From contig CAMCWI010000002.1 in the NCBI GenBank assembly GCA_945882065.1, positions 1 through 52,891 on the forward strand: 52,891 nucleotides of DNA, given 5' to 3'. Origin of the DNA: Akkermansia muciniphila (lineage in GTDB: Bacteria > Verrucomicrobiota > Verrucomicrobiia > Limisphaerales > JADLHS01). The translations under genes were made by a program, and so were the position numbers. The stretch's first letter is position 1; every line of letters starts with the position of its first letter. Shown one piece after another: positions 5,497 to 52,891 of this stretch. The notes beneath the pieces were generated by a model that saw nothing but the letters and a program-made list of their open reading frames with translations, made no database searches and was not told the DNA's origin.

Positions 5497-5610
5497 GGGC
5501 GCGCGTGTTAAACCAAAAATACGCCACCGTGTCAATCGTCAGCAAAAGTTTGTCGGAACTCCATGAGAATGTCCCCATCGGCTGGGTTGCAGTAGCAACC
5601 CGGCTACAAT

Positions 5611-37274: not shown

Positions 37275-40200
37275 TGAAATCTCTCCTGATTTTGGCGGCG
37301 ATATTTTCCGCGCTTGCCGTCAATGCCGCAGGCACGGGTCTCACAGGGGATTACTACACCGCCACCAATTTCACCGGCACGAAGACGAGCCGCGTGGATG
37401 CCACGGTGGACTTTGATTGGGGTGCGAGTTCGCCCGGCTTCGGCGGACTGGGCACGAACAATTTCTCCATTCGTTGGTCGGGCCAGGTTGAGCCGCGTTA
37501 CGACGGGCTTTACAACTTCTACGTTACAGCGGACGACGGCGCGGCACTGTGGGTCAACGACCGTCTGATCGTCTCGCGTTTGCAATCCGCCACGCCGGCG
37601 CAGATGGGCGGTCAGATTTCGCTCCGCGCCAACGAGCGCGTGAATCTCCGGCTCGAATATTTTGAGCGGACCAACAACGCCAGCGTCCGACTCGAATGGG
37701 TCAGCACCAACCAGGCGCGCGAGGTCATTCCGCAGTCGCAGCTTTATCCGACGACCACACCTCCCGAGCGCGGCACAATTTTGCGAGAACACTGGGCGAA
37801 CCTGCCGGGCACAGCGATCACGAACCTGACGAGCAGCACCAACTATCCAAGCAAGCCCGATGGCCGGGAAACATTTTTGAGCTTCGAGTGCCTCCAGCAG
37901 AATTGGGCCACGAATGTCGGCACGCGGATGGCCGGCTACGTCGTGCCGCCGACCAACGGGAGCTACACTTTTGCGGTGGCCGCCAGTGACCGGGCGGAAT
38001 TGTGGATCAGCACCGACGCGAATCCCGCGAACAAACAACTCATCGCTTCCGTCACCAACGCCACCACGTTCCGCAACTGGTCCAATCACGTCTCGCAAGT
38101 CTCCACGGGCCGGACGCTCGTCGCGTGGCAGAAATATTACGTCGAGCTGCTCCACAAGGCGGGCACGAACAACAACCATTATTCCGTCGCGTGGCAGCCG
38201 CCCGGCGCGGCGCAGTTCTCGGTCATTGATGGCAGCTATTTGATTCCGACCGGGCTGACCAACACCCTGCCGTCGCAGGCCAACATCCTCAACACGCTTG
38301 CCACCGCGCATCCGCGCCTCTTCGCCACGGCGGAGCGTTTCAACTGGTTGAAGCAGCAGGTGGCCACCAACGCCAGCGGCCAACCGGCGCAGTGGTATGC
38401 CACGATTTACCAGCAAGCCACGAATCTGTTCACCGCCGCGCCGGTCACTTACCTCCAGGACGAACGTGGAACGATTCTGGCCGAGAGCCGCACAGTGAAA
38501 GACCGGATGTATCAACTGGGCATCGCGTGGAAAATTTCCGGCAACACGAATTTTCCCGAGCGCGCGTGGACGGAGTTGAATGCGGCGGGAAATTTTCCCG
38601 ACTGGCACTCCGACCATTTCCTCGACACCGCCGAGATGACCCACGGCTTCGGCGTGGGTTACGACTGGTTCTACGAGTATTGGACGCCGACGCGGCGGAC
38701 GTTCATCCTCACCAACATCACGACCAAGGGGCTGACCGAGGGGCTGAAGGATTACACCAACAATACTTTTTGGACGCGATCCACCAGCGGCAACTGGAAC
38801 TTGGTTTGCAACGGCGGCCTGACCGTGGGCGCGTTGGCCGTGGGCACGGACGCGGAAACGACGGCGGAACAGATGTTGGCCCGGACCATTCCGTCCGCAG
38901 CGACGGTGATGCCGCATTGGAACGCGGACAACGGCGGTTGGTATGAAGGCATCCAGTATTGGGATTACGGCAGCGAGTATAATGTTCGGATGCTCGCCAG
39001 CTTGCAGTCTGCGCTCGGAACAGATTTTGGCTTGAGCAACACCAACAGTCCGAACAACGCGGGTCTCTTCACGATGTTGCTCGCCAGTGCCAGCAAGCGC
39101 ACCTTCAACTACGGGGATGGCGGCGGCACGGGAATTTCCACCGGCCCGCACATGTTCTGGTGGGCCGGGCGTTTCAATGCGCCCGCTTACAGTTATTTTG
39201 AGCGCACGAATGGTTCGGCCAGTGCCTTGGGCGCGCTGTGGTGGGACGGACGCGGCGGTCTTCCGGCGAGCGAGGACATCGGCACAGATTTCATGTTTCT
39301 CGGACCGACCGGTGTCACGCCTTTCCAATCCCAGCACGTCGGCGTGTTTCGTTCCGCCTGGGGTGACACCAACGAAACGATGCTGTCGTTCAAGGGCGGT
39401 GAAATGGGCGAGGATCACGGCAATCTCGATGCCGGAACTTTTGTTCTCGAAGCGCTCGGCAAACGCTGGGCTTGGGAACTCAGTGCGGACGACTATGCGC
39501 TCCCGGGCTACTTTGATTTGAACCCGGCGTCGGCGACGAATCGTTGGGACTACTATCGGACGCGCGCCGAAGGCCAGAACACACTCGTCATCAATCCCGG
39601 CAACGGCCCGGACACAAAGCTCGGCCAAGTTGCACCCGTGATCACTTTCCAAAGCAAAACCAGCGTCCGATCCCTCGCGGTGATGGATCTCACGCCTGTG
39701 TCAACCAACGTGGTTCGCGCCTGGCGCGGATTGCAATTGTTCGGCCCGCAGCGCAAGCAGGTGTTGATACAAGATGAGATCGCCGGTGGCACGAACGCCA
39801 ACGTCTGGTGGTTCATGCACTATCAGATCAACAGCACGCAGATCGAAATTTCTCCCGACGGCAGCAGCGTGACGATGACTCAGGGCAGCAGCCGGCTTTG
39901 GGGAAAAATTTTGAGCAGCGGCGGCACGTTCGAAGTCATGAGCGCGCTTCCGTTGCCGACGTCGCCGAATCCGGCGGGACAGAGTTCGAATCCGACTTAC
40001 TCGAAGCTCGCAATCCATCTCACCGGCGTCAGCAATACGACCCTCGCCGTGTGGTTCGTGCCGCTCGCGCCTGGAGAAAATCCGCCCGTCGTGCCACCGA
40101 CGCTCACGACGCTGGCCGAGTGGCAGATTCCCGAGAGCGATCCGCCGCTCGCAGCGGACGGCAGCATCACCACGCCGCAAAACACTTCGGTGGATTTGAA

Positions 40201-43200
40201 TCTCACGACGCTCGCCAGCGACACTGTCACGCTCGCGAGCAATCTCGTTTTCTCCGTCACGAGTCCGTCCAACGGCACGGTCACGCTGTTGCCGGATGGC
40301 CGCACCGCGCGCTTCACCCCCGCGACGAATTACTTCGGCACGGGGCAATTTCTTTACACCGTCACCGACGAAGCCACCAATTCCGCCACCGCCGCCGTCG
40401 TCATCTCGGTCTTACCTGCGTTGTGGTATTGGGACACGTTGACCAATGCTGGCTTGCAAGCCGCCAGCGGCAACTGGGACAACGCGAGCGTGAATTGGTC
40501 AACCACCGTCTCCGGCTCGAATCCGCTTTTTGCGTGGCCGTTGCCCGGCAACGATGCGGCGTTCCTCGGCGCGGCGGGCAGTTACACCGTCACGATCAGC
40601 GGCACGCAGAATGTAAACAACATCACCACCGCCAACGGCACATGGACGTTCACCGGCGGCGCGCTGAATCACGCCAACCTCGGCATGACCGTCACTGCCG
40701 ACACCGAGACCACGCTGAATTCTCCGCTCGTGGCCGACACAGATTTCACGAAACTCGGCTCGGCTCGGTTGACGCTCGGCGCGGCGGCAAGTTTTTCGGG
40801 AGATGTCTTTGTGCCGAACGGCACGCTGCGGAGCACCATCAACAACGCGCTGCCTCCGACCGCGTCGTTGACCATTGGTGCGCTTACCACGGCGGGCGCG
40901 CTCGAATTTTCCACCGCCAGCCAGACCTTCAACGACTTCATCGTCAGCAGCACCAACAGCGTGTTGACCAACGTCGTCACCGTGGGCGATGGCCAGACGT
41001 TGAAGCTCACCGGCAGCGTCGCAGTCGGCGTGGACACCGGAGCGTATAGCATCGCGCGGATGCGGATGTCCGGCGGCGGCGAATTGTTGGTCACCAATGC
41101 CGCGCAACATTTCAGCGTCGGCAACGATGTGGCGGTCGCAAGCACCTATGCCTCCAGCGCGTCGCTCGATCTTGCCAAGCTGGGCAATGTCATGCTCGGC
41201 ACAACCGCTTCGCCGCTGGGTGAACTGCGGATCGGTTATGGCAATGGCAATGGCAACGCGTCCATCGTCAGCACGCTCACGCTCTCCGACACCAACAACA
41301 GCATCACGGCGACTACGTTTCAGATCGCGAATTCCCGGACGGCGAATGGCGTCTCTGGAAACTTGTTTCTCGGCGCGGGCAGCAACGTGCTGACGGCGGA
41401 TGTTTTCAACATCGGCTTCTCGAAAGTGAACGGGACGGTGAAGTTTGCATCGCAGTCGCCCGGCAGTCCGGGCACGGTGACCATTCGCGGCAAGAGCGGG
41501 ACGGCAGCGGCCATCTGGATCGGCGACAAGAACGGAACGGGCACGAGCGTGACTCCGACGAGCACGCTGGATTTGCGCGGACACAACGCCACAATCACGG
41601 CGAGCAGTGTGTTCGTCGCCATCGAGGACGGTTCGGGCGCGGGCGGCATGAACGGTTCGCTTTACTTCGATGGCGGCACATTCACGGTGACCAATCTCAC
41701 CATCGGCGATAAGAGCAACACCGGCGCGGGTCTCGCGAATGGCTCTCTGAACATCAGCGGCGGCATTTTTTCAGTTCAACCCGGCGGCCAGTTCACGCTT
41801 GGTTCTCAAGTCAGTGGCGGCACTGCGACAGCAACCCTGAATCTCACCGGCGGAACATTGAACTGCTTCACTGACATTCTCGCTGGCGGCGGTTCGGCCA
41901 CATCCAGCCTCGCGCTGAACGGCGGCACGCTGGACATGAAGGGCAATAACATCACCAGCCTAGACAGCTTCACTTACACCGCTGGCACGCTCACAAACTT
42001 GGGCGTCGTCAACAGTGGCGTGACTTTGGCCGGAAGCGGTTCGCGCGTCTTCGGTCAAGGCATCGGCGTGTCGGGCGTGATTCAGGGTGTTGTCAGTGGA
42101 TCGGGTGTGGGACTCACCAAGACCGGCGCAGGCACACTCACACTCACCGGAACTAATTCCTACACCGGCGCGACCTTGGTCAGCGCGGGCAAACTCGTAG
42201 TCCTTTCCACGAACTCCAGCACCGGCGCGGCGACCGTCAGTGCCAACGCTGTGTTGGGCGCGACCATTTTTGGAGTCAGTCAGTGGAAGCCCGCTTCGCT
42301 TTCTTTGGCGAATCCCTGCACGCTTGAATTCAACAGCCTCGCGAACTCCGGCACAACCACCGCGCCGATTTTGCCGACTGCGGCGGTGGGGGCGGTTGCG
42401 GGTGTGAGCATCAACATCAACAGCATCTCGGGCGCGGTGGTAGTTGGGAACAGTTATCCCTTGCTCGGCAATCAAGGCGGCACTACCAACGGTTACAGTT
42501 TGGGTTCGCAACCGGGTGGCGTCATCGGCCGTCTGGCTTTCAGCGGCACGACGCTCGTTTACGTCGTGGATTCATTGAGTCAATCGGCCGACATCTGGAA
42601 GGGCGCGGACGTCACGAATCCGACTTGGTGGAACATCGCCACCAGCACGAACTGGGCGGGCAACGCATTGGTCAACACGCCTGCGGGCAGCTACGCCAAT
42701 GGCGACAGCGTTTTGTTTGACGACACGGCCACACCGGCTTCACCGGTCACGGTTGGGGTCAGAACTTCGGTGACGCCCGGCAGCGTGGTCTTCTCCAACA
42801 GTGCGAAGGATTACAGCGTCACGAACAACGCAGGCAGCAGCATCGGCGGCAGTGGCAGCTTGACCAAGAGCGGCAGTCGCATGCTGACTCTCTCCGGCGC
42901 GAATAGTTACAGCGGCAACACCACCCACAACTCGGGTATTCTGGTGGCGAATAATAACTCTGCGCTCGGCAACGGCCTGCTGGTGATGAACGGCGGCACG
43001 TTGTCCAACACGGCAAATAACATCGTATTGACCAACGCAGTCAGCCTCGCGCAACCGGCGACAATCGGCGTGCCGTCGTCGGTGACCTTAACCCTCGGTG
43101 GCATCATCACGAACACCGGAACGATCACCAAGGTCGGAGCGGGCACGCTGACGCTGACCAATGCGAACACTTACACTGGTGCGACCATCATTTCCGGCGG

Positions 43201-44647
43201 AGTTCTTTCGCTCAACCACGCGAGTGCTTTGGGTAGCGGGGGCGACGTGACATTCTCCGGCGGTTCATTGTTATACAACGCGAGCTCGGCAGGCATTGAT
43301 CTCTCCAGCCGGATCAAGAACAGCACTTCGCAAATCACTCTTCGGCTCAATGGCCAGAGCGTCACCCACGCGGGTAGCATTGACAGTTCGAGTGTCGCCG
43401 GATTCCAAGTCACCGGCGTCACCACTGGCCTCGGCGGCATGTTGACGTTGTCGGCGGCCAACAACTACGGCGGTAATACCGCGATCGGTAACTCCAGCGG
43501 CGCACAGGACGCCGCGTCCATCACGGTCAGCGGAGCGGGCACGCTGGGTAGTGGGACGATCATCGTCGGACAGACAGGCAACCTGAACGCCAGCCTTCTC
43601 GCACTCACCGCCGTGGCCAGCCTCACCAATCCCATCACGCTTGGCGGACGCACCACGAACAATATCAGCATCCAAAATCTGGCCGGCATCAACACGCTCA
43701 GCGGAACTGTCAGCCTGGCGGCTGGCGGCAGTTTCTATTTGATTCAGTCCGATGCCGGTCTGTTGCAACTGACCGGCAACAGCGGCGGCGGCATCGCGCT
43801 GTCCGCCACTGCCACCGGCAATCGAACGGTCACGCTGCAAGGTATCGGAGATGGCCTCGTCTCCGGCACTATCACCAACGGCAACGCAACCTTGTCATTG
43901 ACCAAAGCCGGAGCGGGCACATGGACGCTTTCCGGCGCGAACACCTACAGCGGCATCACCACCGTCAGCGGCGGCACGTTGCTGGTGAATGGTTCGCTCG
44001 CCGCTGGCAACGTGACGGTCAGCACCAACGCAACATTGGGTGGTTCTGGAAGCATTGGCGGAACGACGACGGTGTTGTCGGGCGGCACAATCAAAGGCGG
44101 CAACGCGAGCGGCTCGAATACTCTGACCGTGGCGAACTCGTTGACCTTGGGTGACACCACCAACGCGGTGACCTCCAGTCAATTCCTGATCGCAGCGGGC
44201 GGAAAAGTTTCTGCCAACTCGCTGACTGTTTCCGGCACGAACATCATCAACATTCTCGACGGCAGCCTGTCGGTCGGAACGAACACGTTGTTCACTTACG
44301 GCGGCGGCTCGATTGGCGGCAGCGGCTTCGCAGGATTCCAATTGGGAACGTTGCCTCCGGGTGTAACGGCGCAATTGTTCAACACCGGCTCGGCGGTTCA
44401 GCTCGTGGTGTTGCCATTGGTGAACACCAATTCTCCCGTGCTGACGAACAGCTACAGCGGCGGAACGCTGACGCTCTCGTGGCCGGCAGATCGTTTGGGC
44501 TGGCGCTTGGAGACGCAGACGAACGCGGCGAACGTCGGCCTCTCGACCAATTGGTCAACGTGGCCCGGTTCAACCAATGTGACGTCGGTGCTTGTCACCA
44601 ACAACCCGGCCAATCCAACAGTGTTCTTCCGGCTCGTTTATCCGTGA
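37271..44647 (+). CDS. 2458-aa secreted multidomain protein: 2x PA14-like, DUF4962/heparinase II/III-like lyase, cadherin/Ig-like, long PATR repeat region, conserved C-terminal module
   Basis: Signal MMKSLLILAAIFSALAVNA. The PA14-like stretch is GLTGDYYTATNFTG...FSIRWSGQVEPRYDGLYNFYVTADDGAALWVND. The lyase part begins HPRLFATAERFNWLKQQ and contains GGEMGEDHGNLDAGTFVLEALGKRWAWELSADDY (heparinase II/III signature context). More than 1400 aa of 'GTLTL(T/S)G.N.Y.G.T' repeats follow. It ends FFRLVYP. Confidence 0.88.
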   Translation: MMKSLLILAAIFSALAVNAAGTGLTGDYYTATNFTGTKTSRVDATVDFDWGASSPGFGGLGTNNFSIRWSGQVEPRYDGLYNFYVTADDGAALWVNDRLIVSRLQSATPAQMGGQISLRANERVNLRLEYFERTNNASVRLEWVSTNQAREVIPQSQLYPTTTPPERGTILREHWANLPGTAITNLTSSTNYPSKPDGRETFLSFECLQQNWATNVGTRMAGYVVPPTNGSYTFAVAASDRAELWISTDANPANKQLIASVTNATTFRNWSNHVSQVSTGRTLVAWQKYYVELLHKAGTNNNHYSVAWQPPGAAQFSVIDGSYLIPTGLTNTLPSQANILNTLATAHPRLFATAERFNWLKQQVATNASGQPAQWYATIYQQATNLFTAAPVTYLQDERGTILAESRTVKDRMYQLGIAWKISGNTNFPERAWTELNAAGNFPDWHSDHFLDTAEMTHGFGVGYDWFYEYWTPTRRTFILTNITTKGLTEGLKDYTNNTFWTRSTSGNWNLVCNGGLTVGALAVGTDAETTAEQMLARTIPSAATVMPHWNADNGGWYEGIQYWDYGSEYNVRMLASLQSALGTDFGLSNTNSPNNAGLFTMLLASASKRTFNYGDGGGTGISTGPHMFWWAGRFNAPAYSYFERTNGSASALGALWWDGRGGLPASEDIGTDFMFLGPTGVTPFQSQHVGVFRSAWGDTNETMLSFKGGEMGEDHGNLDAGTFVLEALGKRWAWELSADDYALPGYFDLNPASATNRWDYYRTRAEGQNTLVINPGNGPDTKLGQVAPVITFQSKTSVRSLAVMDLTPVSTNVVRAWRGLQLFGPQRKQVLIQDEIAGGTNANVWWFMHYQINSTQIEISPDGSSVTMTQGSSRLWGKILSSGGTFEVMSALPLPTSPNPAGQSSNPTYSKLAIHLTGVSNTTLAVWFVPLAPGENPPVVPPTLTTLAEWQIPESDPPLAADGSITTPQNTSVDLNLTTLASDTVTLASNLVFSVTSPSNGTVTLLPDGRTARFTPATNYFGTGQFLYTVTDEATNSATAAVVISVLPALWYWDTLTNAGLQAASGNWDNASVNWSTTVSGSNPLFAWPLPGNDAAFLGAAGSYTVTISGTQNVNNITTANGTWTFTGGALNHANLGMTVTADTETTLNSPLVADTDFTKLGSARLTLGAAASFSGDVFVPNGTLRSTINNALPPTASLTIGALTTAGALEFSTASQTFNDFIVSSTNSVLTNVVTVGDGQTLKLTGSVAVGVDTGAYSIARMRMSGGGELLVTNAAQHFSVGNDVAVASTYASSASLDLAKLGNVMLGTTASPLGELRIGYGNGNGNASIVSTLTLSDTNNSITATTFQIANSRTANGVSGNLFLGAGSNVLTADVFNIGFSKVNGTVKFASQSPGSPGTVTIRGKSGTAAAIWIGDKNGTGTSVTPTSTLDLRGHNATITASSVFVAIEDGSGAGGMNGSLYFDGGTFTVTNLTIGDKSNTGAGLANGSLNISGGIFSVQPGGQFTLGSQVSGGTATATLNLTGGTLNCFTDILAGGGSATSSLALNGGTLDMKGNNITSLDSFTYTAGTLTNLGVVNSGVTLAGSGSRVFGQGIGVSGVIQGVVSGSGVGLTKTGAGTLTLTGTNSYTGATLVSAGKLVVLSTNSSTGAATVSANAVLGATIFGVSQWKPASLSLANPCTLEFNSLANSGTTTAPILPTAAVGAVAGVSININSISGAVVVGNSYPLLGNQGGTTNGYSLGSQPGGVIGRLAFSGTTLVYVVDSLSQSADIWKGADVTNPTWWNIATSTNWAGNALVNTPAGSYANGDSVLFDDTATPASPVTVGVRTSVTPGSVVFSNSAKDYSVTNNAGSSIGGSGSLTKSGSRMLTLSGANSYSGNTTHNSGILVANNNSALGNGLLVMNGGTLSNTANNIVLTNAVSLAQPATIGVPSSVTLTLGGIITNTGTITKVGAGTLTLTNANTYTGATIISGGVLSLNHASALGSGGDVTFSGGSLLYNASSAGIDLSSRIKNSTSQITLRLNGQSVTHAGSIDSSSVAGFQVTGVTTGLGGMLTLSAANNYGGNTAIGNSSGAQDAASITVSGAGTLGSGTIIVGQTGNLNASLLALTAVASLTNPITLGGRTTNNISIQNLAGINTLSGTVSLAAGGSFYLIQSDAGLLQLTGNSGGGIALSATATGNRTVTLQGIGDGLVSGTITNGNATLSLTKAGAGTWTLSGANTYSGITTVSGGTLLVNGSLAAGNVTVSTNATLGGSGSIGGTTTVLSGGTIKGGNASGSNTLTVANSLTLGDTTNAVTSSQFLIAAGGKVSANSLTVSGTNIINILDGSLSVGTNTLFTYGGGSIGGSGFAGFQLGTLPPGVTAQLFNTGSAVQLVVLPLVNTNSPVLTNSYSGGTLTLSWPADRLGWRLETQTNAANVGLSTNWSTWPGSTNVTSVLVTNNPANPTVFFRLVYP
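43970..44647 (+). repeat. Copy 2 of the ~680-bp 3' module shared by the two giant genes
   Basis: See 32521..33207. The protein-level match runs from [10 protein letters not shown]... through [12 protein letters not shown](T/S)[26 protein letters not shown]...[14 protein letters not shown]. Confidence 0.85.
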
Positions 44648-44666
44648 GTAGGCTTCCGGCAGAACT

Positions 44667-46508
44667 ATGAAAAATAAAGCAGGAGCGTGTTTGCAAACAT
44701 CGTCCTCGTCGTCGTTCTCGTCCTCGTCCTCGATTGTTCGTGAGATTCGAGGACGAGAACGAGGACGATTCGTTGGTTCGCAAGTTTTCAAACAGGCTTT
44801 TAGATCATTCTCCCACCTTTTCATTTTGTTGATCGCGGTGCTGCTGACGTCTCAACTTGCTCAGGCTGCCTCAACAAACAGGCCCAACATCATGGTCATT
44901 CTCGCCGATGACTTGGGATTTTCCGACCTCGGCTGTTATGGCGGCGAAATCCGAACGCCCAACATTGATGCACTTGCCGCGAAGGGATTGCGATTCACGC
45001 AGACGTATAATTCCAGCCGCTGCTGTCCATCGCGCGCCAGTTTGCTCACGGGACTTTATCCGCATCAGGCCGGGATTGGAACTATGGCCGGGAAAGATCA
45101 GGGGTTACCCGGCTATCGAGGCCGATTGAGTGACCAAAGCGTGACGTTGGCGGAAGTGTTGCGCCCAGCTGGCTACGCGACGATGGCTTGTGGCAAATGG
45201 CACGTCAACAAACCCGGGCCGACCGAGCGCGGCTTCGATGAGTTCTACGGCTTCGTGAATGGTTACGGGGTCAATTCGTGGGACTCGAACATTATGATCC
45301 GTCTGCCGCAGGGCCGTCCGCAACGCAGCTATTCGCCGGGTGAATTCTACGCCACCACCGCCATCACAGATCACGCGCTGGATTTCATAAGCACCGCGCG
45401 ACAGAAGCGCAAGCCGTGGCTGCTGTATCTCGCCTATCAAGCGCCGCATTTTCCGCTGCAAGCTCCGGCGCGGAACATTGACAGCTACCTCGCGACTTAC
45501 GAGCGCGGCTGGGATGTCCTGCGCGCCGAGCGACTGGAACGGATGAAGAAACTGGGCATCGCGCCCGCGAATGAGCCGTTACCGCCGCGCTCGCCGATTG
45601 ACAATGTCGAAGTCGCCAAGCGCATCGGCTCGATGACGGGCGATGGATGCAATCCGCCCTGGGATTCACTTGATGCAAAACGCCGGGCCGATCTCGCGCG
45701 TCGCATGGCGGCCTATGCGGCCATGGTGGAGGTGATGGATGCCAACATCGGGCGGCTCGTCGCTTCGCTGCGAGAGAAGGGCGACCTCGACAACACGCTG
45801 ATCTTGTTCCTAAGCGACAATGGCGCGTGTGCCGAGTGGGAGTCGTTCGGCTTCGATCTTGACCCGGAGAAATTTCGCAACTCGCGCCCCGGTCAGGGCA
45901 TTGATGTCAACACGCTGGCGGCGACGAATGTCCTGCACGAAGGCAAGGCGCTGGCGGCGATGGGAAATGCGGAGAGCCTGTTCAGCTACGGTTCGGCCTG
46001 GGCGAATTTTTGCAACACGCCGCTCCGGCTCTATAAACATTTCACCCACGAAGGCGGCATCCGCACGCCGATGGTCGTGCATTGGCCCGCGGGCATTGCC
46101 GGGAAAGGCGAGTGGCGGCTACAGGTCGTGCACATCATGGACATCATGGCGACGTGCGTTGAGGCCAGCGGCGCGAAGTATCCCGGCGCGTTTGCGGGTC
46201 ACGACATTTTGCCGACGAGCGGGCAGAGTCTCCTGCCGGCGTTCCGCAACGAACCGGAGACGCCACGCACGCTGGTGTTCGAACACGAAAGCAACGTCGC
46301 GATCCGCGACGGCAACTGGAAGCTGGTGGCTCAAAAAGCTCTCACTCGCGATGGCCTGCAAGCGGACGTGCGCTGGGAACTTTACAATCTTGCTACCGAT
46401 CCGTTCGAGCAGCGCAACCTTGGCGCGGAAAAGCCGGAGTTGGTGGAGCGATTGTCGCGGAAGTTTCTGGATGAAGCGCGCCGCACGAATATTTTCCCCA
46501 AGCCGTGA
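44667..46508 (+). CDS. Arylsulfatase-type (S1 family, formylglycine-dependent) sulfatase
   Basis: PNIMVILADDLGFSDLGCYGG and the CCPSRASLLTG (C-x-P-x-R) motif, with GKWH. The start is assigned to the only upstream ATG (44667). This places the hairpin repeat and ~45 aa ahead of the signal-like FILLIAVLLTSQLAQA. Confidence 0.86.
   Translation: MKNKAGACLQTSSSSSFSSSSSIVREIRGRERGRFVGSQVFKQAFRSFSHLFILLIAVLLTSQLAQAASTNRPNIMVILADDLGFSDLGCYGGEIRTPNIDALAAKGLRFTQTYNSSRCCPSRASLLTGLYPHQAGIGTMAGKDQGLPGYRGRLSDQSVTLAEVLRPAGYATMACGKWHVNKPGPTERGFDEFYGFVNGYGVNSWDSNIMIRLPQGRPQRSYSPGEFYATTAITDHALDFISTARQKRKPWLLYLAYQAPHFPLQAPARNIDSYLATYERGWDVLRAERLERMKKLGIAPANEPLPPRSPIDNVEVAKRIGSMTGDGCNPPWDSLDAKRRADLARRMAAYAAMVEVMDANIGRLVASLREKGDLDNTLILFLSDNGACAEWESFGFDLDPEKFRNSRPGQGIDVNTLAATNVLHEGKALAAMGNAESLFSYGSAWANFCNTPLRLYKHFTHEGGIRTPMVVHWPAGIAGKGEWRLQVVHIMDIMATCVEASGAKYPGAFAGHDILPTSGQSLLPAFRNEPETPRTLVFEHESNVAIRDGNWKLVAQKALTRDGLQADVRWELYNLATDPFEQRNLGAEKPELVERLSRKFLDEARRTNIFPKP
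44712..44768. repeat. Strong hairpin repeat (TCGTCCTCG-type) inside the first 35 codons of the sulfatase ORF
   Basis: TCGTTCTCGTCCTCGTCCTCGA (44712-44733) pairs with TCGAGGACGAGAACGAGGACGA (44747-44768) at 20 of 22 positions plus one G-U. The loop is 13 nt. It translates as SSSSFSSSSSIVREIRGRERGR. Confidence 0.7.
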
Positions 46509-46533
46509 CCGCGCGCTTGGCTAGTTTTGCAAA

Positions 46534-47892
46534 ATGAAGTCACTGTTGAACCAAATTCTAGTGATGGTGCTCGGTGCGCTTGCGCTCTCCGCTCACGCGG
46601 CGCAGCGGCCCAACATCATCTTTGTTTTCACCGATGACTTCGGCTGGGGCGACCTCGGCAGTTACGGCGGCAAAATGGTGGCGACGCCGAATCTGGATCG
46701 CATGGCGGCAGAGGGCGTCCGCTTCACGCAGTTTTATGTCGCGTCGCCAATCTGCTCGCCGTCGCGCACCGGGGTGACGACGGGAATGTTTCCGGCGCGC
46801 TGGCGGATCACGAGTTACTTGCAGGACCGCAAAGGCAACGCCGCGTGCGGACAGGCGGATTTTCTGGACACGAACGCGCCGAGCGTGGCGCGGTTGCTGC
46901 AATCCAGCGGCTATGCCACGGCGCACTTCGGCAAGTGGCACATGGGCGGCGGACGCGACGTGACGAACGCGCCGCACATCAAAGCCTACGGCTTCGACGA
47001 ATGGGCGAGCACCTGGGAAAGCCCCGATCCGCATCCCGACCTCATGGCGACGAATTGGATCTGGTCGCCGCATGACAAGGTGAAGCGCTGGGATCGCACG
47101 GCGTTCTTCGTGGACTGGACGCTGGACTTTTTGAAGCGCCACACGAACCAGCCTTGCTATGTGAACCTCTGGCCGGATGACACGCACACTCCGTTTGTGC
47201 CAAGCCCGGCACTCAAGGAAAAATACAAAGCCGGAGACGATGCCAACAGCGAGGCGCACTTCAAGGGCGTGCTTGAAGAATACGACCGGCAGATGGGGCG
47301 GTTGCTCGATGGCTTGAAACAGCTTGGCATCGCAACGAACACGCTCGTGGTGTTTACCGGCGACAACGGGCCATCGCCAACGTATCGGCAGAAGCGCACC
47401 GCCGGATTGCGCGGCTCGAAGTTGAGTTTGTATGAAGGCGGCACGCGGCTGCCGTTGATCGTGTGGTGGTCGGGCGCGACGCCCGCAGGCCGGGTGAACG
47501 AACGCACAGTGGTGAACGCGGTGGACTTGCTGCCGACATTTTGCAGGCTGGCGGGCGCGGCGGTGTCGCCGGACATCGCGACGAAACTGGACGGTGAAGA
47601 TTTAAGCACCGCGTTCACTGGCGGCGAACCAAAGCGGAGTTGCGCGATGTTCTGGGAGTATGGGCGCAACAATCAGTCGTTCAAGTATCCGGCAGCAGCT
47701 AGTAACCGAAGTCCCAACGTTGCGGTTCGCGAGGGCGATTGGAAACTGCTGGTGAATGCCGATGGCTCGGACGCGCAACTGTTCGATCTCGGCGCGGATG
47801 TTTTTGAAACGCGAAACGTGGCGGAAGCCAATCCGCAGGTCACCGCTCGCTTGAAGCAGAAGGCCCTTGCGTGGCGGAAGGAATTGCCATAA
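46534..47892 (+). CDS. Sulfatase (S1 family, formylglycine-dependent)
   Basis: Signal MKSLLNQILVMVLGALALSAHA. Contains PNIIFVFTDDFGWGDLGSYGG, CSPSRTGVTTG, GKWHMGG and DNGP. Confidence 0.9.
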   Translation: MKSLLNQILVMVLGALALSAHAAQRPNIIFVFTDDFGWGDLGSYGGKMVATPNLDRMAAEGVRFTQFYVASPICSPSRTGVTTGMFPARWRITSYLQDRKGNAACGQADFLDTNAPSVARLLQSSGYATAHFGKWHMGGGRDVTNAPHIKAYGFDEWASTWESPDPHPDLMATNWIWSPHDKVKRWDRTAFFVDWTLDFLKRHTNQPCYVNLWPDDTHTPFVPSPALKEKYKAGDDANSEAHFKGVLEEYDRQMGRLLDGLKQLGIATNTLVVFTGDNGPSPTYRQKRTAGLRGSKLSLYEGGTRLPLIVWWSGATPAGRVNERTVVNAVDLLPTFCRLAGAAVSPDIATKLDGEDLSTAFTGGEPKRSCAMFWEYGRNNQSFKYPAAASNRSPNVAVREGDWKLLVNADGSDAQLFDLGADVFETRNVAEANPQVTARLKQKALAWRKELP

Positions 47893-47910
47893 AGGCTGAA
47901 CTGTCCTGTT

Positions 47911-49347
47911 ATGAAAACTGCAAAAAAGTCCGTCTCTAAAAACTACGCGCCAGTCGCGTTTCTCTTCGTTGCGATGATGTGCTGCGTCGCGTCGGCACAG
48001 GAGAAGCCGAACTTTGTCGTCATCAACATTGATGACCTGGGTTACGCGGACATCGGGCCGTTCGGCTCGAAGCTCAACCGCACGCCGCAGCTTGACCGCA
48101 TGGCGAAGGAGGGGCGCAAGCTCACTTCGTTTTACGCCGCACCGGTGTGTTCGCCTTCGCGCGCCGCGCTCATGACCGGCTGCTACGCCAAGCGCGCGCT
48201 GCCGATTCCGCACGTGCTTTTTCCCGCCGACGGCATCGGGCTTTCGCCGAAGGAAATCACCGTGGCCGAAGTTTTGAAAAGCGCGGGTTACGCCACGGCG
48301 ATCATCGGCAAGTGGCATCTCGGCGACCAGCCGGAGTGGCTGCCGAACGCGCAGGGCTTCGATCTTCACTTCGGCCTGCCTTACTCCAACGACATGGGGA
48401 CTGCCGGCGACGGGGCGAAGAGCGATCTGGGCAAACCCATCCCGAAACAAAACGGAAAGAGCCAGCCGCCGTTGCCGCTGCTGCGCAACGGGGAAGTCGT
48501 CAAGCGCGTGCTGCCGGACGACCAGCAATCGCTCGTCGAAATCTACACCGACGAAGCGGTGAAATTCATTCAGGAGAAGAAGGGCGTGCCGTTCCTCCTC
48601 TACCTGCCGCATAACGCCGTTCATTTCCCCATTTATCCCGGCAAGAAATGGGCCGGCAAATCGCCAAACGGAATTTACTCCGACTGGGTGGAGGAAGTGG
48701 ATTGGAGTGTGGGCCGCATTCTCGACACGCTCCGTGAAAACGGGCTGGCGGAAAAAACGCTCGTGATTTTCACCTCCGATAACGGCGGCACGCCCCGCGC
48801 GGTCAATGCCCCGTTGCGTGGACATAAAGGCAGCACGCTCGAAGGCGGGATGCGCGTCCCAACCCTCGCGTGGTGGCCCGGCAAAATCCCAGCCGGCACG
48901 GAGACTGATGCCGTCACCGCCATGTTCGACATCCTGCCCACCTTCGCCGCGTTGTCGGATGCCAAACTTCCCACCGACCGCAAACTCGACGGCGTCAGCA
49001 TCTGGCCGCAACTCGCCGGTCTGCCGGACGCCAAGCCCGCGCACGAAACATTCTACTATTACTACGGACTCATTTTGAACGCCGTCCGCCACGGCGACTG
49101 GAAATTGCAAATCGTGCAGGGCAACAAGGCGACGGCGGGAGAAGGATTCACCTCGCAGCTTTACAATTTGAAGACCGACATCGGCGAGAAGCAGGATGTT
49201 GCCGCAGCGAATCCCAAAATCGTGGCGCAACTTCAGGCACTCATTGCCGCGATGAAAGACGACCTCGGCGTGAACGACAAGGGCACTGGCTGCCGCGAAC
49301 TCGCGCGCAAGCCCGATTCAAAACCGCTCATTCCTCATGACAAATAA
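47911..49347 (+). CDS. Sulfatase (S1 family, formylglycine-dependent)
   Basis: Signal-like VAFLFVAMMCCVASA. Contains PNFVVINIDDLGYADIGPFGS, CSPSRAALMTG, GKWHLGD and SDNGG. Confidence 0.9.
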   Translation: MKTAKKSVSKNYAPVAFLFVAMMCCVASAQEKPNFVVINIDDLGYADIGPFGSKLNRTPQLDRMAKEGRKLTSFYAAPVCSPSRAALMTGCYAKRALPIPHVLFPADGIGLSPKEITVAEVLKSAGYATAIIGKWHLGDQPEWLPNAQGFDLHFGLPYSNDMGTAGDGAKSDLGKPIPKQNGKSQPPLPLLRNGEVVKRVLPDDQQSLVEIYTDEAVKFIQEKKGVPFLLYLPHNAVHFPIYPGKKWAGKSPNGIYSDWVEEVDWSVGRILDTLRENGLAEKTLVIFTSDNGGTPRAVNAPLRGHKGSTLEGGMRVPTLAWWPGKIPAGTETDAVTAMFDILPTFAALSDAKLPTDRKLDGVSIWPQLAGLPDAKPAHETFYYYYGLILNAVRHGDWKLQIVQGNKATAGEGFTSQLYNLKTDIGEKQDVAAANPKIVAQLQALIAAMKDDLGVNDKGTGCRELARKPDSKPLIPHDK

Positions 49348-49430
49348 TCACCTGCCATCAGCGGATTGTTCCCAATCCGACCGTCACGGTAATTCGTGCG
49401 TCACTTGGTTTTCGTTCCACATGCCACCGA

Positions 49431-49770
49431 GTGAAGTCGTTCGGCGCTGACAATTTCAACGCGCCTTGAATTTCGGCTGCTCTCTACAGACAAAGTTGGC
49501 TCGCTTCGCTCGAAATGAAGTCAGTTCGCGCTGCACTCCATTCGCGTGCTCATCATTCTAACATTGGTGGGTCGGGCTGCTTCTCTGGTTCGCGAATGTC
49601 GTGGTCAGCAGCCCTTTTGCCCCGCGCGTGTGTGGCGCGTCATCAACGCTCGGATGGTCTTGTTTCAATTCACCGTTGTCGTAACGCCATGCGTCATTGC
49701 GCGGGTCAGGCATCAATATTTGCTGCTATCGCAGATTTATTTGTTGAATTGCTCGTCGCTTCGCGACTCG
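49431..49770 (+). repeat. Copy A of a ~340-420-bp non-coding element (candidate structured RNA or cassette boundary)
   Basis: Collinear with 50982..51405. Shared blocks are (G/A)TGAAGTCGTTCG..GACAATTT(C/G)AACGCG, AGTTCGC..TTCGCGTGCTCA, GGTGGG, GGGTCAGGCATCAAT, GCTATCGC and CTCGTCGCTTC. Hairpin GGGCTGCT (49574-49581) pairs with AGCAGCCC (49607-49614). Long-range pair CCCGCGC (49621-49627) pairs with GCGCGGG (49699-49705). Confidence 0.7.
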
Positions 49771-49806
49771 GTTGTGGAGTGCGTCGGCACGACGACGCTT
49801 TGATCC

Positions 49807-49822
49807 GCGCGACATGTCGCGC
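49807..49822. promoter_or_regulatory. Perfect 16-bp palindrome upstream of mrr (possible operator or hairpin)
   Basis: GCGCGACATGTCGCGC, about 155 bp upstream of the mrr ATG. Its function is unknown. Confidence 0.3.
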
Positions 49823-49976
49823 ATCGCTTGGGGCTTCTGTCCTGCAGTCGCTCGTCTGGCGGTGGCTAGTCGTCACCGGCTGGCTTCGCCCATCACGCCG
49901 TCGCGAGCGCCCAGTCCGAGCCGTGGTTGCCATTATCCGCGTTCTTCAATACGATTCTCTCTAATGCGCTCCAGCT

Positions 49977-50906
49977 ATGCCAATTCCTGATTACCAAACG
50001 ATCATGTTGCCGTTGCTGAAGTTCTGCGGCAGCGCCCCCGGCGAAATTTCCACCCGCACGGCCGTTGATGCATTGGCCACTCAATTCAAGCTGTCCGACG
50101 CAGAACTGCGCGAGATGCTCCCCAGCGGCACGCAACCCACTTTCTCCAACCGGGTGGGCTGGGCCGCAACTTACATGAAGAAAGCCGGGTTGCTCACACC
50201 AACGAGGCGCGGCTTCTATCGCGTCACCGACCAAGGTCGAAAATTCCTCACCACTAATCCTTCGCGCATCGACGCCAAGGTGCTTCGCCAATTTCCCGAG
50301 TTTGTCGACTTCACCAAACTCAAAGGCACGCGCAAGTCTCAGTCCAAGGACCAGACGGTGGACAACGACATCGAGCCAGATGCAACTCCGTCCGAAGCTC
50401 TCGACAACGCATATCAGAGCCTCCGCTCACAGCTCGCAAGCGACATTCTCGACAATCTCAAAAAAGTTGACCCCTCCCACTTTGAACGTGTCGTTGTCGA
50501 GTTGATTGTAAAAATGGGCTACGGCGGATCGCGCGCCGATGCCGGTAAAGCCATCGGCCGTTCCGGCGACGAGGGTATTGATGGTATCATCAAGGAAGAC
50601 AAACTTGGTCTCGACACCATTTACATTCAGGCCAAGCGCCGTGATTCCGCAACCGTTGGCAGGCCCGACGTTCAGCAATTCGCCGGCGCACTCCAGGGAC
50701 AGGGTGCTCACAAAGGCATCTTTATCACCACGTCCCGTTTCACCTTGGAAGCAAAAGATTACGCCCAGCGCATTGGCAGTAAAATCGTTCTCATCGACGG
50801 CGAACAACTCGCCGAGTTGATGATTGATCACGATGTCGGCGTGACTACGGTGTCAACCTATGTGACTAAACGGATCGATTCGGATTTCTTCCTTGAAGAC
50901 ATCTGA
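49977..50906 (+). CDS. mrr: Mrr-family (type IV, modification-dependent) restriction endonuclease
   Basis: The N-terminal winged-helix Mrr_N is MPIPDYQTIMLPLLKF...FSNRVGWAATYMKKAGLL. The C-terminal Mrr_cat has FERVVVELIVKMGYG...GDEGIDGIIKEDKLGLDTIYIQAKRR (D...(Q/E)xK core) ...GIFITTSRFT. Confidence 0.9.
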   Translation: MPIPDYQTIMLPLLKFCGSAPGEISTRTAVDALATQFKLSDAELREMLPSGTQPTFSNRVGWAATYMKKAGLLTPTRRGFYRVTDQGRKFLTTNPSRIDAKVLRQFPEFVDFTKLKGTRKSQSKDQTVDNDIEPDATPSEALDNAYQSLRSQLASDILDNLKKVDPSHFERVVVELIVKMGYGGSRADAGKAIGRSGDEGIDGIIKEDKLGLDTIYIQAKRRDSATVGRPDVQQFAGALQGQGAHKGIFITTSRFTLEAKDYAQRIGSKIVLIDGEQLAELMIDHDVGVTTVSTYVTKRIDSDFFLEDI

Positions 50907-50981
50907 AACTTTCTCGCCCTCTCTGGACCGCCGCCTTAACGCTACTGTCCCGTCACTCGCCGTTCGGAACGCACGCAGCCA

Positions 50982-51405
50982 GATGAAGTCGTTCGTCTTG
51001 GACAATTTGAACGCGTTTTGTTTTTCGTTCACCCACCCCGGTTAAAATCAGCTCGCGTTGCTCAGAGTAAATTTAGTTCGCACTTCGCGTGCTCAGCAAC
51101 GACGAGGCGCGCAACCAGAGTCACGCTTTTTATTTACGTGCATCACCGCCGCGCGCGCGATGCCTGACGCTCGCCCTACCACCTAACGGTGGTGGGCCGG
51201 GCAGCCCGCTCAGGTTTACGAACGTCATCCCCGGCTGCCCTCTCGCTACCCGCGCGCGCGGTGGACGCCTCACCACGCTCGAACGCGCTTGTTCCAATCC
51301 ACCGTTGCGGGTGGCTCGAATGCCTGGCGCGCGCGGGTCAGGCATCAATGTCAGCCGCTATCGCGGAAAGATTGATTGAACTTCTCGTCGCTTCCTCCTC
51401 GCGAG
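50982..51405 (+). repeat. Copy B of the non-coding element, with a ~90-bp extra segment
   Basis: Hairpin GGGCAGCC (51199-51206) pairs with GGCTGCCC (51233-51240). Long-range pair CCCGCGCGCG (51249-51258) pairs with CGCGCGCGGG (51328-51337). An extra outer pair GATGCCTGAC (51159-51168) with GTCAGGCATC (51337-51346) is created by the insert at ~51100-51195. Confidence 0.7.
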
Positions 51406-51439
51406 GGCGAACCTACACTGCGTTGCGGTTCGCCTTTTT
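51406..51439 (+). terminator. Rho-independent terminator at the 3' edge of repeat copy B
   Basis: GGCGAACC (51406-51413) pairs with GGTTCGCC (51427-51434) and is followed by TTTTT (51435-51439). Confidence 0.7.
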
Positions 51440-52092
51440 AGTCTTTCCGAGTTTCAGCATTTTCCCATGGCCTCACAGAGCCGACGCGATTCGCCCAGAT
51501 CACAAGCTCATCGCCTCGGCACTGTTCGGCCCGCGACCGATGACTGACTCGTCAGCTTTGCCGCCGCTGCACTCCACTTCGCGTCCGCTAAAGATGAAGC
51601 AAGCTCCCGCTGCATTCGTTCCGCCGGCTGCAAACTGCCGAGACAGTCAAGAACAGCTCGGTCGCACCCAACGACTCCAAAGGCCGCGAGGCTTCGCCCG
51701 GCCACGACAGCAGCATTATGGGCGCGATGCTCCGCATGTCGCCCAAGGCAACAACTCAGCCATAGCCGTGAGACCGGCGCAGCTTTGCATCGCTGCGCTC
51801 GCAAACAGGCCGGACTCACTGACCAAACAAAGTTAGTCTGAGACTTCGGCGTCAGGCTGCGATCCGGCGGTCGAGCCAGCCCCGACTCCCTCTGGCGTCG
51901 CCCGCTCGGACCTCCGCTCTGCCGCCGAAGACTCAGAAGTTTTGGCTTCGTGCTGGCGCGACTGCGCCGGGCATCGAGTCCAGCAGCCCCGGCACAGGTC
52001 ATCGGCTACGCGGCGGGTTGGCATGAACGACCGGCTCGGCTTACGGTGCTCCTTCGTCCGCGCCTGTGGCCTCGCCTTGCGAACCGGCCAAT

Positions 52093-52220
52093 CAGACAAC
52101 ACACATTGTGCGTTCGTTCCTTCGTGCCTCAGTCACTACTTTATCCTGTTCACCCAAACAATCCTCACTCGTGAGCCTCTTTTGGGTGGGATAAAGCTAC
52201 GCACAATGTGGCGTTGTCTG
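52093..52220. other. 128-nt three-tier imperfect hairpin
   Basis: CAGACAAC (52093-52100) pairs with GTTGTCTG (52213-52220). CACATTGTGCGT (52102-52113) pairs with ACGCACAATGTG (52199-52210). CTTTATCC (52139-52146) pairs with GGATAAAG (52189-52196). CACCCAAA (52151-52158) pairs with TTTGGGTG (52181-52188). That is 36 Watson-Crick pairs in four helices. Confidence 0.75.
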
Positions 52221-52627
52221 CATCGCCGCTGCGGCGCTGTCACACTGACTGCTGATCCGCACCTCGCCTCCGTGCGGGCAGTCAGAGCGCCAGCTTGCAG
52301 GCATCCTTCCCGCCAACACCGCCGCTTCGCCGTTTTGAAAATTAGCCGGGGCATTGTGAGAAAATAATTCCTTCGCTCCGCTCGCGTTGAGTTAGGCGGC
52401 GTCCACGTCGTTACCGCCGCACAGGTTGGCCTCCCGCATTCAGGTCCTTTTTTGCTTCGCGCACCTCTGCTTCGTCTCGTCCTGTCGCCCTCACTGCCTT
52501 GCCGCAATACCAGCCCGCCCACTCGTGGCGACCTTCTGAAGACCACTTCCACGGGGGAGGGCTGGCGGCTCGGCTTTTTCGTGAAGGGCGACACTCCGAA
52601 GACCATCAGCAGAGCAAAAAAAAAGAC

Positions 52628-52891
52628 CATGAATACTACATCACAAAATCAAATCATTAGTTCAGAGCTCAACAACCGATCCCATCAGCAGTCACAGACA
52701 GGGACAGCAGCACCGGAAGGCGCAGCCGCGCCAGAGCGCAAAGACAATCGCTTGCCGATTGATTCGGAAGTGAGGAAGCAGAACCGCACCTTGCCCACAC
52801 CGAAGGTGTTGACCCTTTTGCACCAGCAGTTGCCCGCCGCGTATCGTTTGGCCGAGGTAGTCGGGAAGTGGATTTGGGTTCAGTTCAAGGA
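52628..52891 (+). CDS. Partial (N-terminal) hypothetical protein running off the window
   Basis: Absent from the ORF track because no stop lies in the window. ATG at 52628 follows an A-run. The product is MNTTSQNQIISSELNNRSHQQSQTGTAAPEGAAAPERKDNRLPIDSEVRKQNRTLPTPKVLTLLHQQLPAAYRLAEVVGKWIWVQFK. The end vaguely recalls small conserved proteins of integrative/conjugative elements, from memory only. Confidence 0.45.

Follow-up and report, generated by a model that had tools for sequence, protein, structure and literature searches.

A stretch of 52,891 nt from an Akkermansia muciniphila assembly (GCA_945882065.1, contig CAMCWI010000002.1, positions 1–52,891 of the forward strand; hereafter the window) carries an mrr gene that lies between two direct copies, A and B, of a long non-coding element with a conserved secondary structure. 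By homology, both copies belong to an undescribed family of such elements, which was found in about 21 independent loci from Verrucomicrobiota metagenome-assembled genomes (MAGs), metagenomes and one IMG/VR contig, and is represented by 24 distinct core sequences. To judge from its gene context, the element is the edge of a defence-gene hotspot and a conserved backbone feature of phage-like mobile elements; the bracketing of mrr by two copies appears as one case of a recurrent pattern that belongs to the hotspot and not to mrr. We consider a plus-strand structured RNA of the early module of these mobile elements to be the most likely reading of the element, with a confidence that falls a little short of even. 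The features of the window are collected in Table 1, and the other loci are designated by L and a number.

Two diverged copies of the element flank mrr

The two copies are collinear but diverged direct repeats around mrr, as had been proposed in a preliminary description made from the letters of the window. With copy B as query, nhmmer found the sole further copy of the window at 49399–49762 (E = 1.4e-29), and the next-best match after the copies in a covariance-model search of the window reached only 10 bits (E = 0.27). The mean column identity of A and B in a MAFFT alignment was 75%. Their homology begins near CGTCACT (49399 in A and 50951 in B), slightly upstream of where the preliminary description had placed it. 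The compensatory changes reported for one hairpin were also found; this hairpin is P3, whose arms are GGGCTGCT (49574–49581) and AGCAGCCC (49607–49614) in A and GGGCAGCC and GGCTGCCC in B, with both arms altered at two positions. The outer closing stem and the terminator reported for B are both present.

Comparison with the other family members indicated that A and B are no matched pair, B being canonical and A a decayed member of another subtype. Copy B is 86% identical to the copies in L061 and L017, which come from other metagenomes, and only 64% identical to A, and the nearest relative of A is L067a (69% identity), the upstream copy of another array. Copy A is devoid of about 85–90 nt, and with them both the closing stem P1 and the hairpin P2 have lost their 5′ arms. 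Because this segment is present in the 22 other family members, which is every other full copy, the difference is a deletion in A and not the insert of about 90 bp in B that had been described earlier. Copy A retains P3, the invariant 19-mer GCGCGGGTCAGGCATCAAT (49699–49717) and the small hairpin P5. In a covariance model built from the 24 cores it scored 141 bits, as against 267 for B, 239–277 for intact copies and 64–77 for other upstream remnants; A is itself in the training alignment of this model, yet it scores about half of what the intact copies do. Copy A is thus probably a remnant that is no longer functional. A 3′ tail like the one that follows A was also detected by nhmmer after the copies in L064, L067 (twice) and L068. 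Among independent Logan contigs, one ends at about 49550 (L209) and two start exactly at 49785 (L003 and L004). The assemblies of those samples therefore break over the 3′ two-thirds of copy A, which suggests near-identical copies or strain variants in the community.

Table 1. Features mapped between the last sulfatase gene and the right end of the window.
Feature	Position	Strand	Description and basis
Leftmost mobile-element sequence	49358–49398	+	Probable start about 11 nt past the sulfatase stop (49345–49347); boundary approximate
Copy A	49399–49770	+	Decayed family member, subtype 'a'; alignment, nhmmer, covariance model
Alternative 3′ tail of the element	49771–49825	+	Hairpins GCGTCG..CGACGC and GCGCGAC..GTCGCGC; nhmmer
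Short conserved stretch upstream of cargo gene	49844–49923	+	blastn, 74% over 80 nt to L025 2774–2695
Putative sigma-70-like promoter of mrr	49927–49955	+	TTGCCA-17-TACGAT; consensus scan, pattern match only
mrr	49977–50906	+	Mrr_N PF14338 (E = 3e-28) and Mrr_cat PF04471 (E = 2e-37); Pfam
Copy B, 5′ domain	50951–51158	+	Helix GUUCGC(A/G)C / G(U/C)GCUCA(G/A)C and conserved GGCGCGCAACC block
Copy B, core four-way junction	51159–51346	+	RNAalifold, pair counts with controls, covariance model 267 bits
P1	51159–51168 / 51337–51346	+	10-bp closing (outer) stem, GATGCCTGAC / GTCAGGCATC
P2	51174–51183 / 51188–51196	+	9-bp hairpin with one bulge and YRAC loop
P3	51199–51206 / 51233–51240	+	7 bp around a loop of ~29 nt
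P4	51249–51261 / 51328–51336	+	(CG)n stem enclosing a variable insert of ~65–75 nt
Copy B, 3′ region	51347–51405	+	Hairpin P5 and conserved CTCGTCGCTTC block
P5	51355–51358 / 51363–51366	+	4-bp hairpin (CCGC / GCGG) directly after P1
Intrinsic terminator	51406–51439	+ only	GGCGAACC..GGTTCGCC hairpin, then T-run
Region D	51440–52628	+	~1.2 kb, conserved, non-coding; covarying helices, GGCCGCGAGGCTTCGCCCGGCC-type hairpins, long hairpin 52094–52222
Gene E, start	52629–52891	+	First gene of the module, cut by the window end; 153 aa in L001 (12654–13115)

The core of the element is a conserved and covarying structure

The consensus structure was predicted by RNAalifold on 16 and later on 24 copies, and the same core of five helices was obtained both times. 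Each family member spans about 450–490 nt. A 5′ domain is joined to the core, a four-way junction that the invariant stem GAUGCCUGAC/GUCAGGCAUC closes, and in many members an intrinsic terminator forms the end. When the 36 pairs of the five helices were counted over the 24 copies, 97.1% of the cells held standard pairs as compared with 92.1 ± 0.4% in shuffled alignments. Changes on both sides were observed in 10 pairs (3.5 ± 1.0 in shuffles) and the covariation score was 0.128 (0.042 in shuffles), and none of the 500 shuffles reached either of these values. In the slid controls, where the partners were moved by 1–3 columns, the score was at most 0.030 and pairing dropped to 36–43%. The best covarying columns were 47/61, with C-G in 12 copies, G-C in 11 and U-A in 1, and 87/121, with A-U in 10, C-G in 8 and U-A in 6. 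These findings substantiate the earlier proposal of a structured non-coding element.

The helices differ in what they contribute to this evidence. P1 and P4 are nearly invariant and hence uninformative for covariation, L069 excepted, where P1 carries a swap from U-A to C-G. P4 corresponds to the second, long-range pairing (CCCGCGC.../...GCGCGGG) that had been offered as further support; it gives no covariation evidence because its (CG)n tracts are invariant and self-complementary and pair trivially. L069 also has an insertion that lengthens P2, and there the pairing is extended and the TAAC loop is kept, which favours a folded strand over a double-stranded palindrome bound by a protein. Single-sequence folding was uninformative (z-scores of −1.2 for A and −2.6 for B). 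The G+C content of the element region is 0.61–0.68.

The family is sporadic in Verrucomicrobiota and absent from Rfam

The homologues asked for in the preliminary description were collected by several routes. Genomes representing 185,579 species were scanned with the shared 17-mer GCGGGTCAGGCATCAAT, which returned 54 stretches, and nhmmer recognised true homologues in five of them. Three of these are on contigs of two Verrucomicrobiota MAGs; the other two are on contigs binned as 'Hyphomicrobiales' and 'Bifidobacteriaceae', which were probably mis-binned. With only five genomes matched among so many species the element is sporadic, and is therefore not a housekeeping gene. Eight more loci came from JGI metagenomes by a gapped pattern followed by nhmmer. 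The same kind of pattern scan on viral contigs was too loose, as it gave 120 stretches of which one was real. The 153-aa protein E encoded downstream of the element led to one IMG/VR contig when used as query, and its 1440 relatives in metagenomes led to long contigs with the full context. At least four subtypes could be distinguished, and arrays mix differing ones (a→1, a→3 and 3→4).

The suggestion that the element is new to Rfam was borne out. No match at the gathering threshold was obtained for the whole window with the models of Rfam 15, including RNase P, tmRNA, 6S, SRP, GOLLD, ROOL, HEARO and group I/II introns. At a relaxed threshold the region 49300–52700 gave just two chance matches of about 17 bits (E ≤ 10), and six further loci gave two chance matches of about 21 bits (E ≤ 1). 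BLAST of copy B with region D returned no match among 50,697 phage and 72,556 plasmid records. Literature searches on structured RNA in Verrucomicrobia prophages gave nothing relevant and the element was not found described in the literature searched, and a search on DUF6573, a family encoded in the downstream operon, gave nothing.

The element borders a defence-gene hotspot in integrative elements

The module formed by the element, region D and the genes from E onwards sits within integrase-bearing, phage-like integrative elements of Verrucomicrobiota. From their gene content these appear to be prophages or capsid-forming satellite-like elements, together with integrase elements of about 10 kb that have no capsid genes. 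Portal, scaffold and major head genes were found in L190, L198, L193, J (L008 plus L037), L066 and L069. In L190, L198 and J the terminase was also identified, and the module lies between the terminase large subunit gene and the portal gene, which are normally neighbours, in the opposite orientation. L191 and L199 are elements of 10–11 kb that are flanked by host genes at either end and encode an AAA_25 protein and a tyrosine integrase, but have no capsid genes. L192 is an element of 14 kb in which the integrase adjoins the hotspot. No attachment-site direct repeats of 9 nt or longer were found at the ends of L191, L192 and L199. In L037, a 138-aa PD-(D/E)XK-like protein (5188–5604; weak match to PDDEXK_5, phrog_5018) ends the plus-strand module against terL.

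The window has the sequence ATCAGCGGAT..CCCAATCC..ACCG in common with the region that precedes the element in L061. As the sulfatase gene ends 11 nt before this common flank, the right end of the window appears to be the left part of such a mobile element, the remainder of which is beyond the contig end. The exact sulfatase protein was also looked up for an empty site, and none was found.

The gene bracketed in the window is identified by its two Pfam domains as that of an Mrr restriction endonuclease (type IV), and it appears to be interchangeable cargo, for the same slot holds other genes in other loci. The slot contains YafQ(-DinJ) and Fic in L066, DinJ-YafQ in L064 and L068, PIN-MazE in L191, HEPN and Fic in L192, Fic in L199, HEPN and a 220-aa protein in L198, an EcoRI-like methylase, GmrSD/HNH and a PIN-like pair in L193, a UDG-like gene in L069, and a RelE/HTH pair in L025, where a NERD gene lies just downstream of the element; it is empty in L017 and L190. 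The direct upstream neighbour of the canonical copy in some loci is the portal gene or host genes. The orientation of the cargo is mixed, and many loci with cargo have one copy only. In seven loci the cargo lies between the canonical copy and a second copy of another subtype, which may be complete, internally deleted or cut down to the 3′ 130 nt. In L067 there are two adjacent copies with nothing between them. Other copies thus do flank different cargo genes, a point that the preliminary description had proposed to check, and the association with defence genes was upheld. The element could not be kept as a 3′ untranslated region of mrr, as all of the approximately 20 other loci lack mrr and have Fic, HEPN, NERD, toxin-antitoxin or restriction-modification genes or the portal gene instead. 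The proposal that the copies are recombination boundaries of a cassette stood in part: cargo is bracketed in the seven loci, but A and B are unmatched and A is decayed. The L025 counterpart of the short conserved stretch upstream of mrr (Table 1) is likewise upstream of toxin-antitoxin cargo.

Folded RNA, folded DNA and the strand of the element

The reading of the element as a plus-strand RNA draws on three observations. The terminator with its T-run, for which the earlier assignment to the plus strand held, is kept in eight loci of several subtypes (the window, L017, L060, L061, L069, L193, L198 and L206), and on the minus strand its hairpin is followed by CTCGCGAG and has no T-run. A helix of the 5′ domain shows, between invariant pairs, U-A in 12 and U-G in 9 copies at one position and G-U in 11, A-U in 5 and G-C in 3 at another when read on the plus strand, and the same helix read on the minus strand would have about 20 C·A mismatches. 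In addition, the element faces the same way as the conserved downstream operon, which was counted for the plus strand.

Several observations weigh against a plus-strand RNA. A consensus scan gave no convincing sigma-70 promoter upstream of B, or on the plus strand from mrr to gene E, and only some subtypes have a terminator. The core helices are almost purely Watson-Crick, with G-U in 4 of 853 cells and A·C in about as many, and most of the covariation consists of transversion swaps (C-G/G-C and A-U/C-G), which is unusual for RNA families; a hairpin at the DNA level fits these data equally well. The near-invariance of P1 and P4 could reflect sequence-specific recognition by a protein. For both the element and region D, RNAalifold gives the reverse strand a slight advantage in energy, and therefore the helices do not fix the strand. 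No conserved 10-mer complementarity was found between B and the leader of gene E; inverted repeats of that length were conserved only inside the element itself and in the long hairpin of region D, and so an antisense mechanism of the P4 type is without direct support.

In one alternative the element acts as DNA, either as a folded single strand or as a cruciform. It could then serve as a packaging signal, as a site of single-strand initiation or an origin, or as an attC-like site of cargo exchange, with the bracketing copies as functional cassette boundaries. We regard this as unlikely. The scarcity of G-U pairs, the transversion swaps and energies that favour neither strand are all consistent with it; P1 and the 19-mer GCGCGGGTCAGGCATCAAT are invariant and resemble a protein recognition site; the bracketing of cargo by two copies recurs in seven loci; and the mobile elements encode tyrosine integrases and AAA_25 helicase-like proteins. 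The size and organisation of the element argue the other way, for it has 350–500 nt, a junction of several helices and long conserved unpaired stretches, which is unlike attC, single-strand initiation sites and the ends of insertion sequences, it is closed by a terminator that works in one direction, and its richness in G+C is unlike typical origins. Furthermore, the integrase lies about 8 kb off, beyond the capsid genes, in the prophage-like L190 and L198, so that B is not the phage attachment site (attP), and the cargo comes with promoters of its own, lies in either orientation and is in many loci accompanied by one copy only.

A minus-strand function of B, as part of a leftward transcript running from upstream of gene E through D and B to the cargo, appears improbable. 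The slightly higher RNAalifold energies and pair counts of that strand for B and D speak for it, as do the minus-strand genes that several loci have in D (a 219-aa ORF, or open reading frame) and in the cargo (Fic, YafQ and PIN). The additional minus-strand pairs are, however, very rich in G-U, as in the 5′ domain with 45 such cells out of 224, which suggested an effect of base composition. When read on the plus strand, a helix of region D (columns 862–866/879–883) shows U·G in eight of ten sequences. The terminator, which works on the plus strand only, and the 20 C·A mismatches in the 5′-domain helix are also at odds with it.

Least probable of all is that the copies have no function, as scars of repeated integration or unequal recombination or as decaying coding sequence with incidental structure: decay is evident in copy A, L064a, the L191 fragment and L199, and assemblies break at the copies, but intact copies hold 97% pairing and compensatory changes across sequences that are only 60–70% identical, the element keeps its place in all members of the family, the marker protein of which has 1440 relatives, every reading frame is broken by indels, and there is no match to genes for tRNA or tmRNA, partial copies of which are a common mark of integration sites.

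On the plus-strand RNA reading, B would give rise to a cis-encoded RNA that regulates the early module or forms its leader, and the terminator could serve as an attenuator, or as an insulator against read-through from the cargo. Its role might resemble that of the leader and immunity RNAs of satellites and temperate phages. The duplication may be a by-product of cargo turnover, in which recombination between related mobile elements of differing subtypes would leave an extra upstream copy, often decayed; copy A could be one such remnant. More tentatively, and with considerable doubt, the element, possibly together with the 1.2-kb region D, may be a new class of large ornate non-coding RNA of Verrucomicrobiota phage-like integrative elements, which might act as an RNA switch, an immunity determinant or an anti-defence factor for the early operon, with the subtypes as specificities, and which the hotspot might use as a homology flank for swaps of defence genes. 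Should the element prove to be an RNA, it would bring a large structured RNA family to a phylum in which hardly any non-coding RNAs or phage biology have been characterised; judged from the 1440-member marker protein, the family probably has hundreds to more than 1000 members. The element also provides a sequence landmark for defence-gene hotspots in Verrucomicrobial mobile elements, and the near-lack of G-U pairs makes the question of RNA versus folded DNA directly testable.

Comparison with known systems

Large ornate prophage RNAs such as GOLLD and ROOL (RF01998 and RF03087) are a known kind (Weinberg et al. 2017, PMC5737381; Kretsch et al. 2025, PMC12286853). Like them, the element is large, non-coding, conserved in structure, located on phage-like elements and known from comparative analysis only. 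It differs in that it matches neither of them in sequence or structure, is not located by tRNA genes, occurs in Verrucomicrobiota and has a different architecture, and in that it stands at a defence hotspot, is often present as two diverged copies, in tandem and of differing subtypes, and has very few G-U pairs.

The leader and immunity RNAs of satellites and temperate phages include the P4 CI RNA with seqA/B/C, the c4 RNA of P1 and P7, and the abundant inter-inverted-repeat ('IIR') transcript of PLE (Barth et al. 2020, PMC7567579). The element shares with them a position at the non-coding head of an operon in an integrative satellite-like element, inverted repeats and a terminator, and its subtypes could correspond to specificities. 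Those RNAs measure about 70–300 nt and act by complementarity to repeated leader sequences, whereas no such conserved complementarity was found here and transcription of the element is a prediction from its sequence. As regards the P4 type in particular, the location upstream of a conserved operon and the terminator fit, but no promoter was identified in the consensus scan.

The slot occupied by mrr is comparable to the defence hotspots of P2-like phages and P4-like satellites, which Rousset and colleagues reportedly described in 2022. In both, a fixed slot between backbone features holds variable anti-phage genes and toxin-antitoxin pairs, and in the prophage-like loci the slot adjoins the portal gene. 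Unlike in those hotspots, one flank here is a structured non-coding element and not a core gene, and that flank is often duplicated.

Integron attC sites resemble the element in the conservation of structure over sequence, in their Watson-Crick stems and in repeats that bracket variable genes by a tyrosine recombinase gene. An attC site is a single hairpin of 55–140 nt that follows promoterless genes facing the same way, as against 350–500 nt, five helices and a four-way junction in the element; the cargo here is equipped with promoters of its own and faces either way, only one copy is present in most loci, and the integrase is about 8 kb away in some. An attC or cassette array was therefore rejected on unit length, helices, the predicted promoter of mrr and mixed orientation, the R and L box consensus having not been searched systematically.

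Other candidates were discarded. A duplicated attachment site derived from a tRNA or tmRNA gene did not agree with the absence of any ARAGORN gene in the window and with the partial copies lying upstream of the complete one, and attP in general did not agree with the distance of the integrase in the prophage-like loci. The ends of a hairpin-dependent transposon (IS200/IS605 or IS91/ISCR), raised in the preliminary description, were not supported, as the same element occurs twice in direct orientation with only mrr and no transposase between, inside integrase-bearing elements. For a repeat of the miniature inverted-repeat transposable element or repetitive extragenic palindromic kind, no genome contig had more than one locus and no extra copies were seen in the window or in the 20-kb flanks of L190–L192. 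The differences between A and B are not adenine-specific as in the template and variable repeats of diversity-generating retroelements, and the copies are only 64–75% identical, which does not suit direct terminal repeats. No gene or model matching a retron, CRISPR, riboswitch or intron was found. The caveat that the copies could be a coding relic fell as well, since the ORFs over the copies have no Pfam match and indels among the homologues break the frame; in the GQASMSAAIAE... stretch, which had prompted the caveat, the spacers between fixed anchors vary among copies as 10/11/12/14 nt and 10/15/16/17/18 nt.

Region D, the downstream operon and the host side of the window

The order of B, D and E is constant, and the homology continues through D into the gene at 52629 in all loci that are long enough. 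Copy B and region D together form about 1.7 kb of contiguous conserved non-coding sequence. Region D has no credible ORF and is 77–92% identical to a Verrucomicrobiota MAG; where the window differs from two homologues, the mismatches lack a 3-nt periodicity, and there are numerous indels. RNAalifold gave 15 pairs changed on both sides in D, a count to which no controls were applied. The long hairpin (about 130 nt) is nearly perfect, with the arms CAGACAAC..ACATTGTGCG and CGCACAATGT..GTTGTCTG and nested inner stems, and its inverted repeat and spacing of about 97 nt are kept in seven loci.

Gene E is always the first gene after the non-coding region, and it is usually followed by a 71-aa protein, DUF6573 and others in a plus-strand operon. 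Its product has the invariant motif GKWxWVxF...LGFHWNRERQAWQHPCG. The protein had no match in Pfam or PHROGs, and its AlphaFold model was poor (pLDDT, the predicted local distance difference test score, of 58) and gave no fold match in the PDB at E ≤ 0.001.

Hairpin units of the GGCCGCGAGGCTTCGCCCGGCC and GGGCGCGATGCTCCGCATGTCGCCC types occur at 51660–51760, with one to three per homologue of D. A second variable spot of D at 52321–52368 holds an insert of 0.7–0.9 kb in L190, L192 and L193–L197, and the insert of L193–L197 contains the 219-aa ORF on the opposite strand, which has no Pfam match. On the host side, 37271–49347 encodes a 2458-aa PA14/cadherin/PATR protein followed by four sulfatase-like ORFs (44667–49347), the last three of which have Sulfatase Pfam matches, a layout that is typical of polysaccharide-degrading Verrucomicrobiota.

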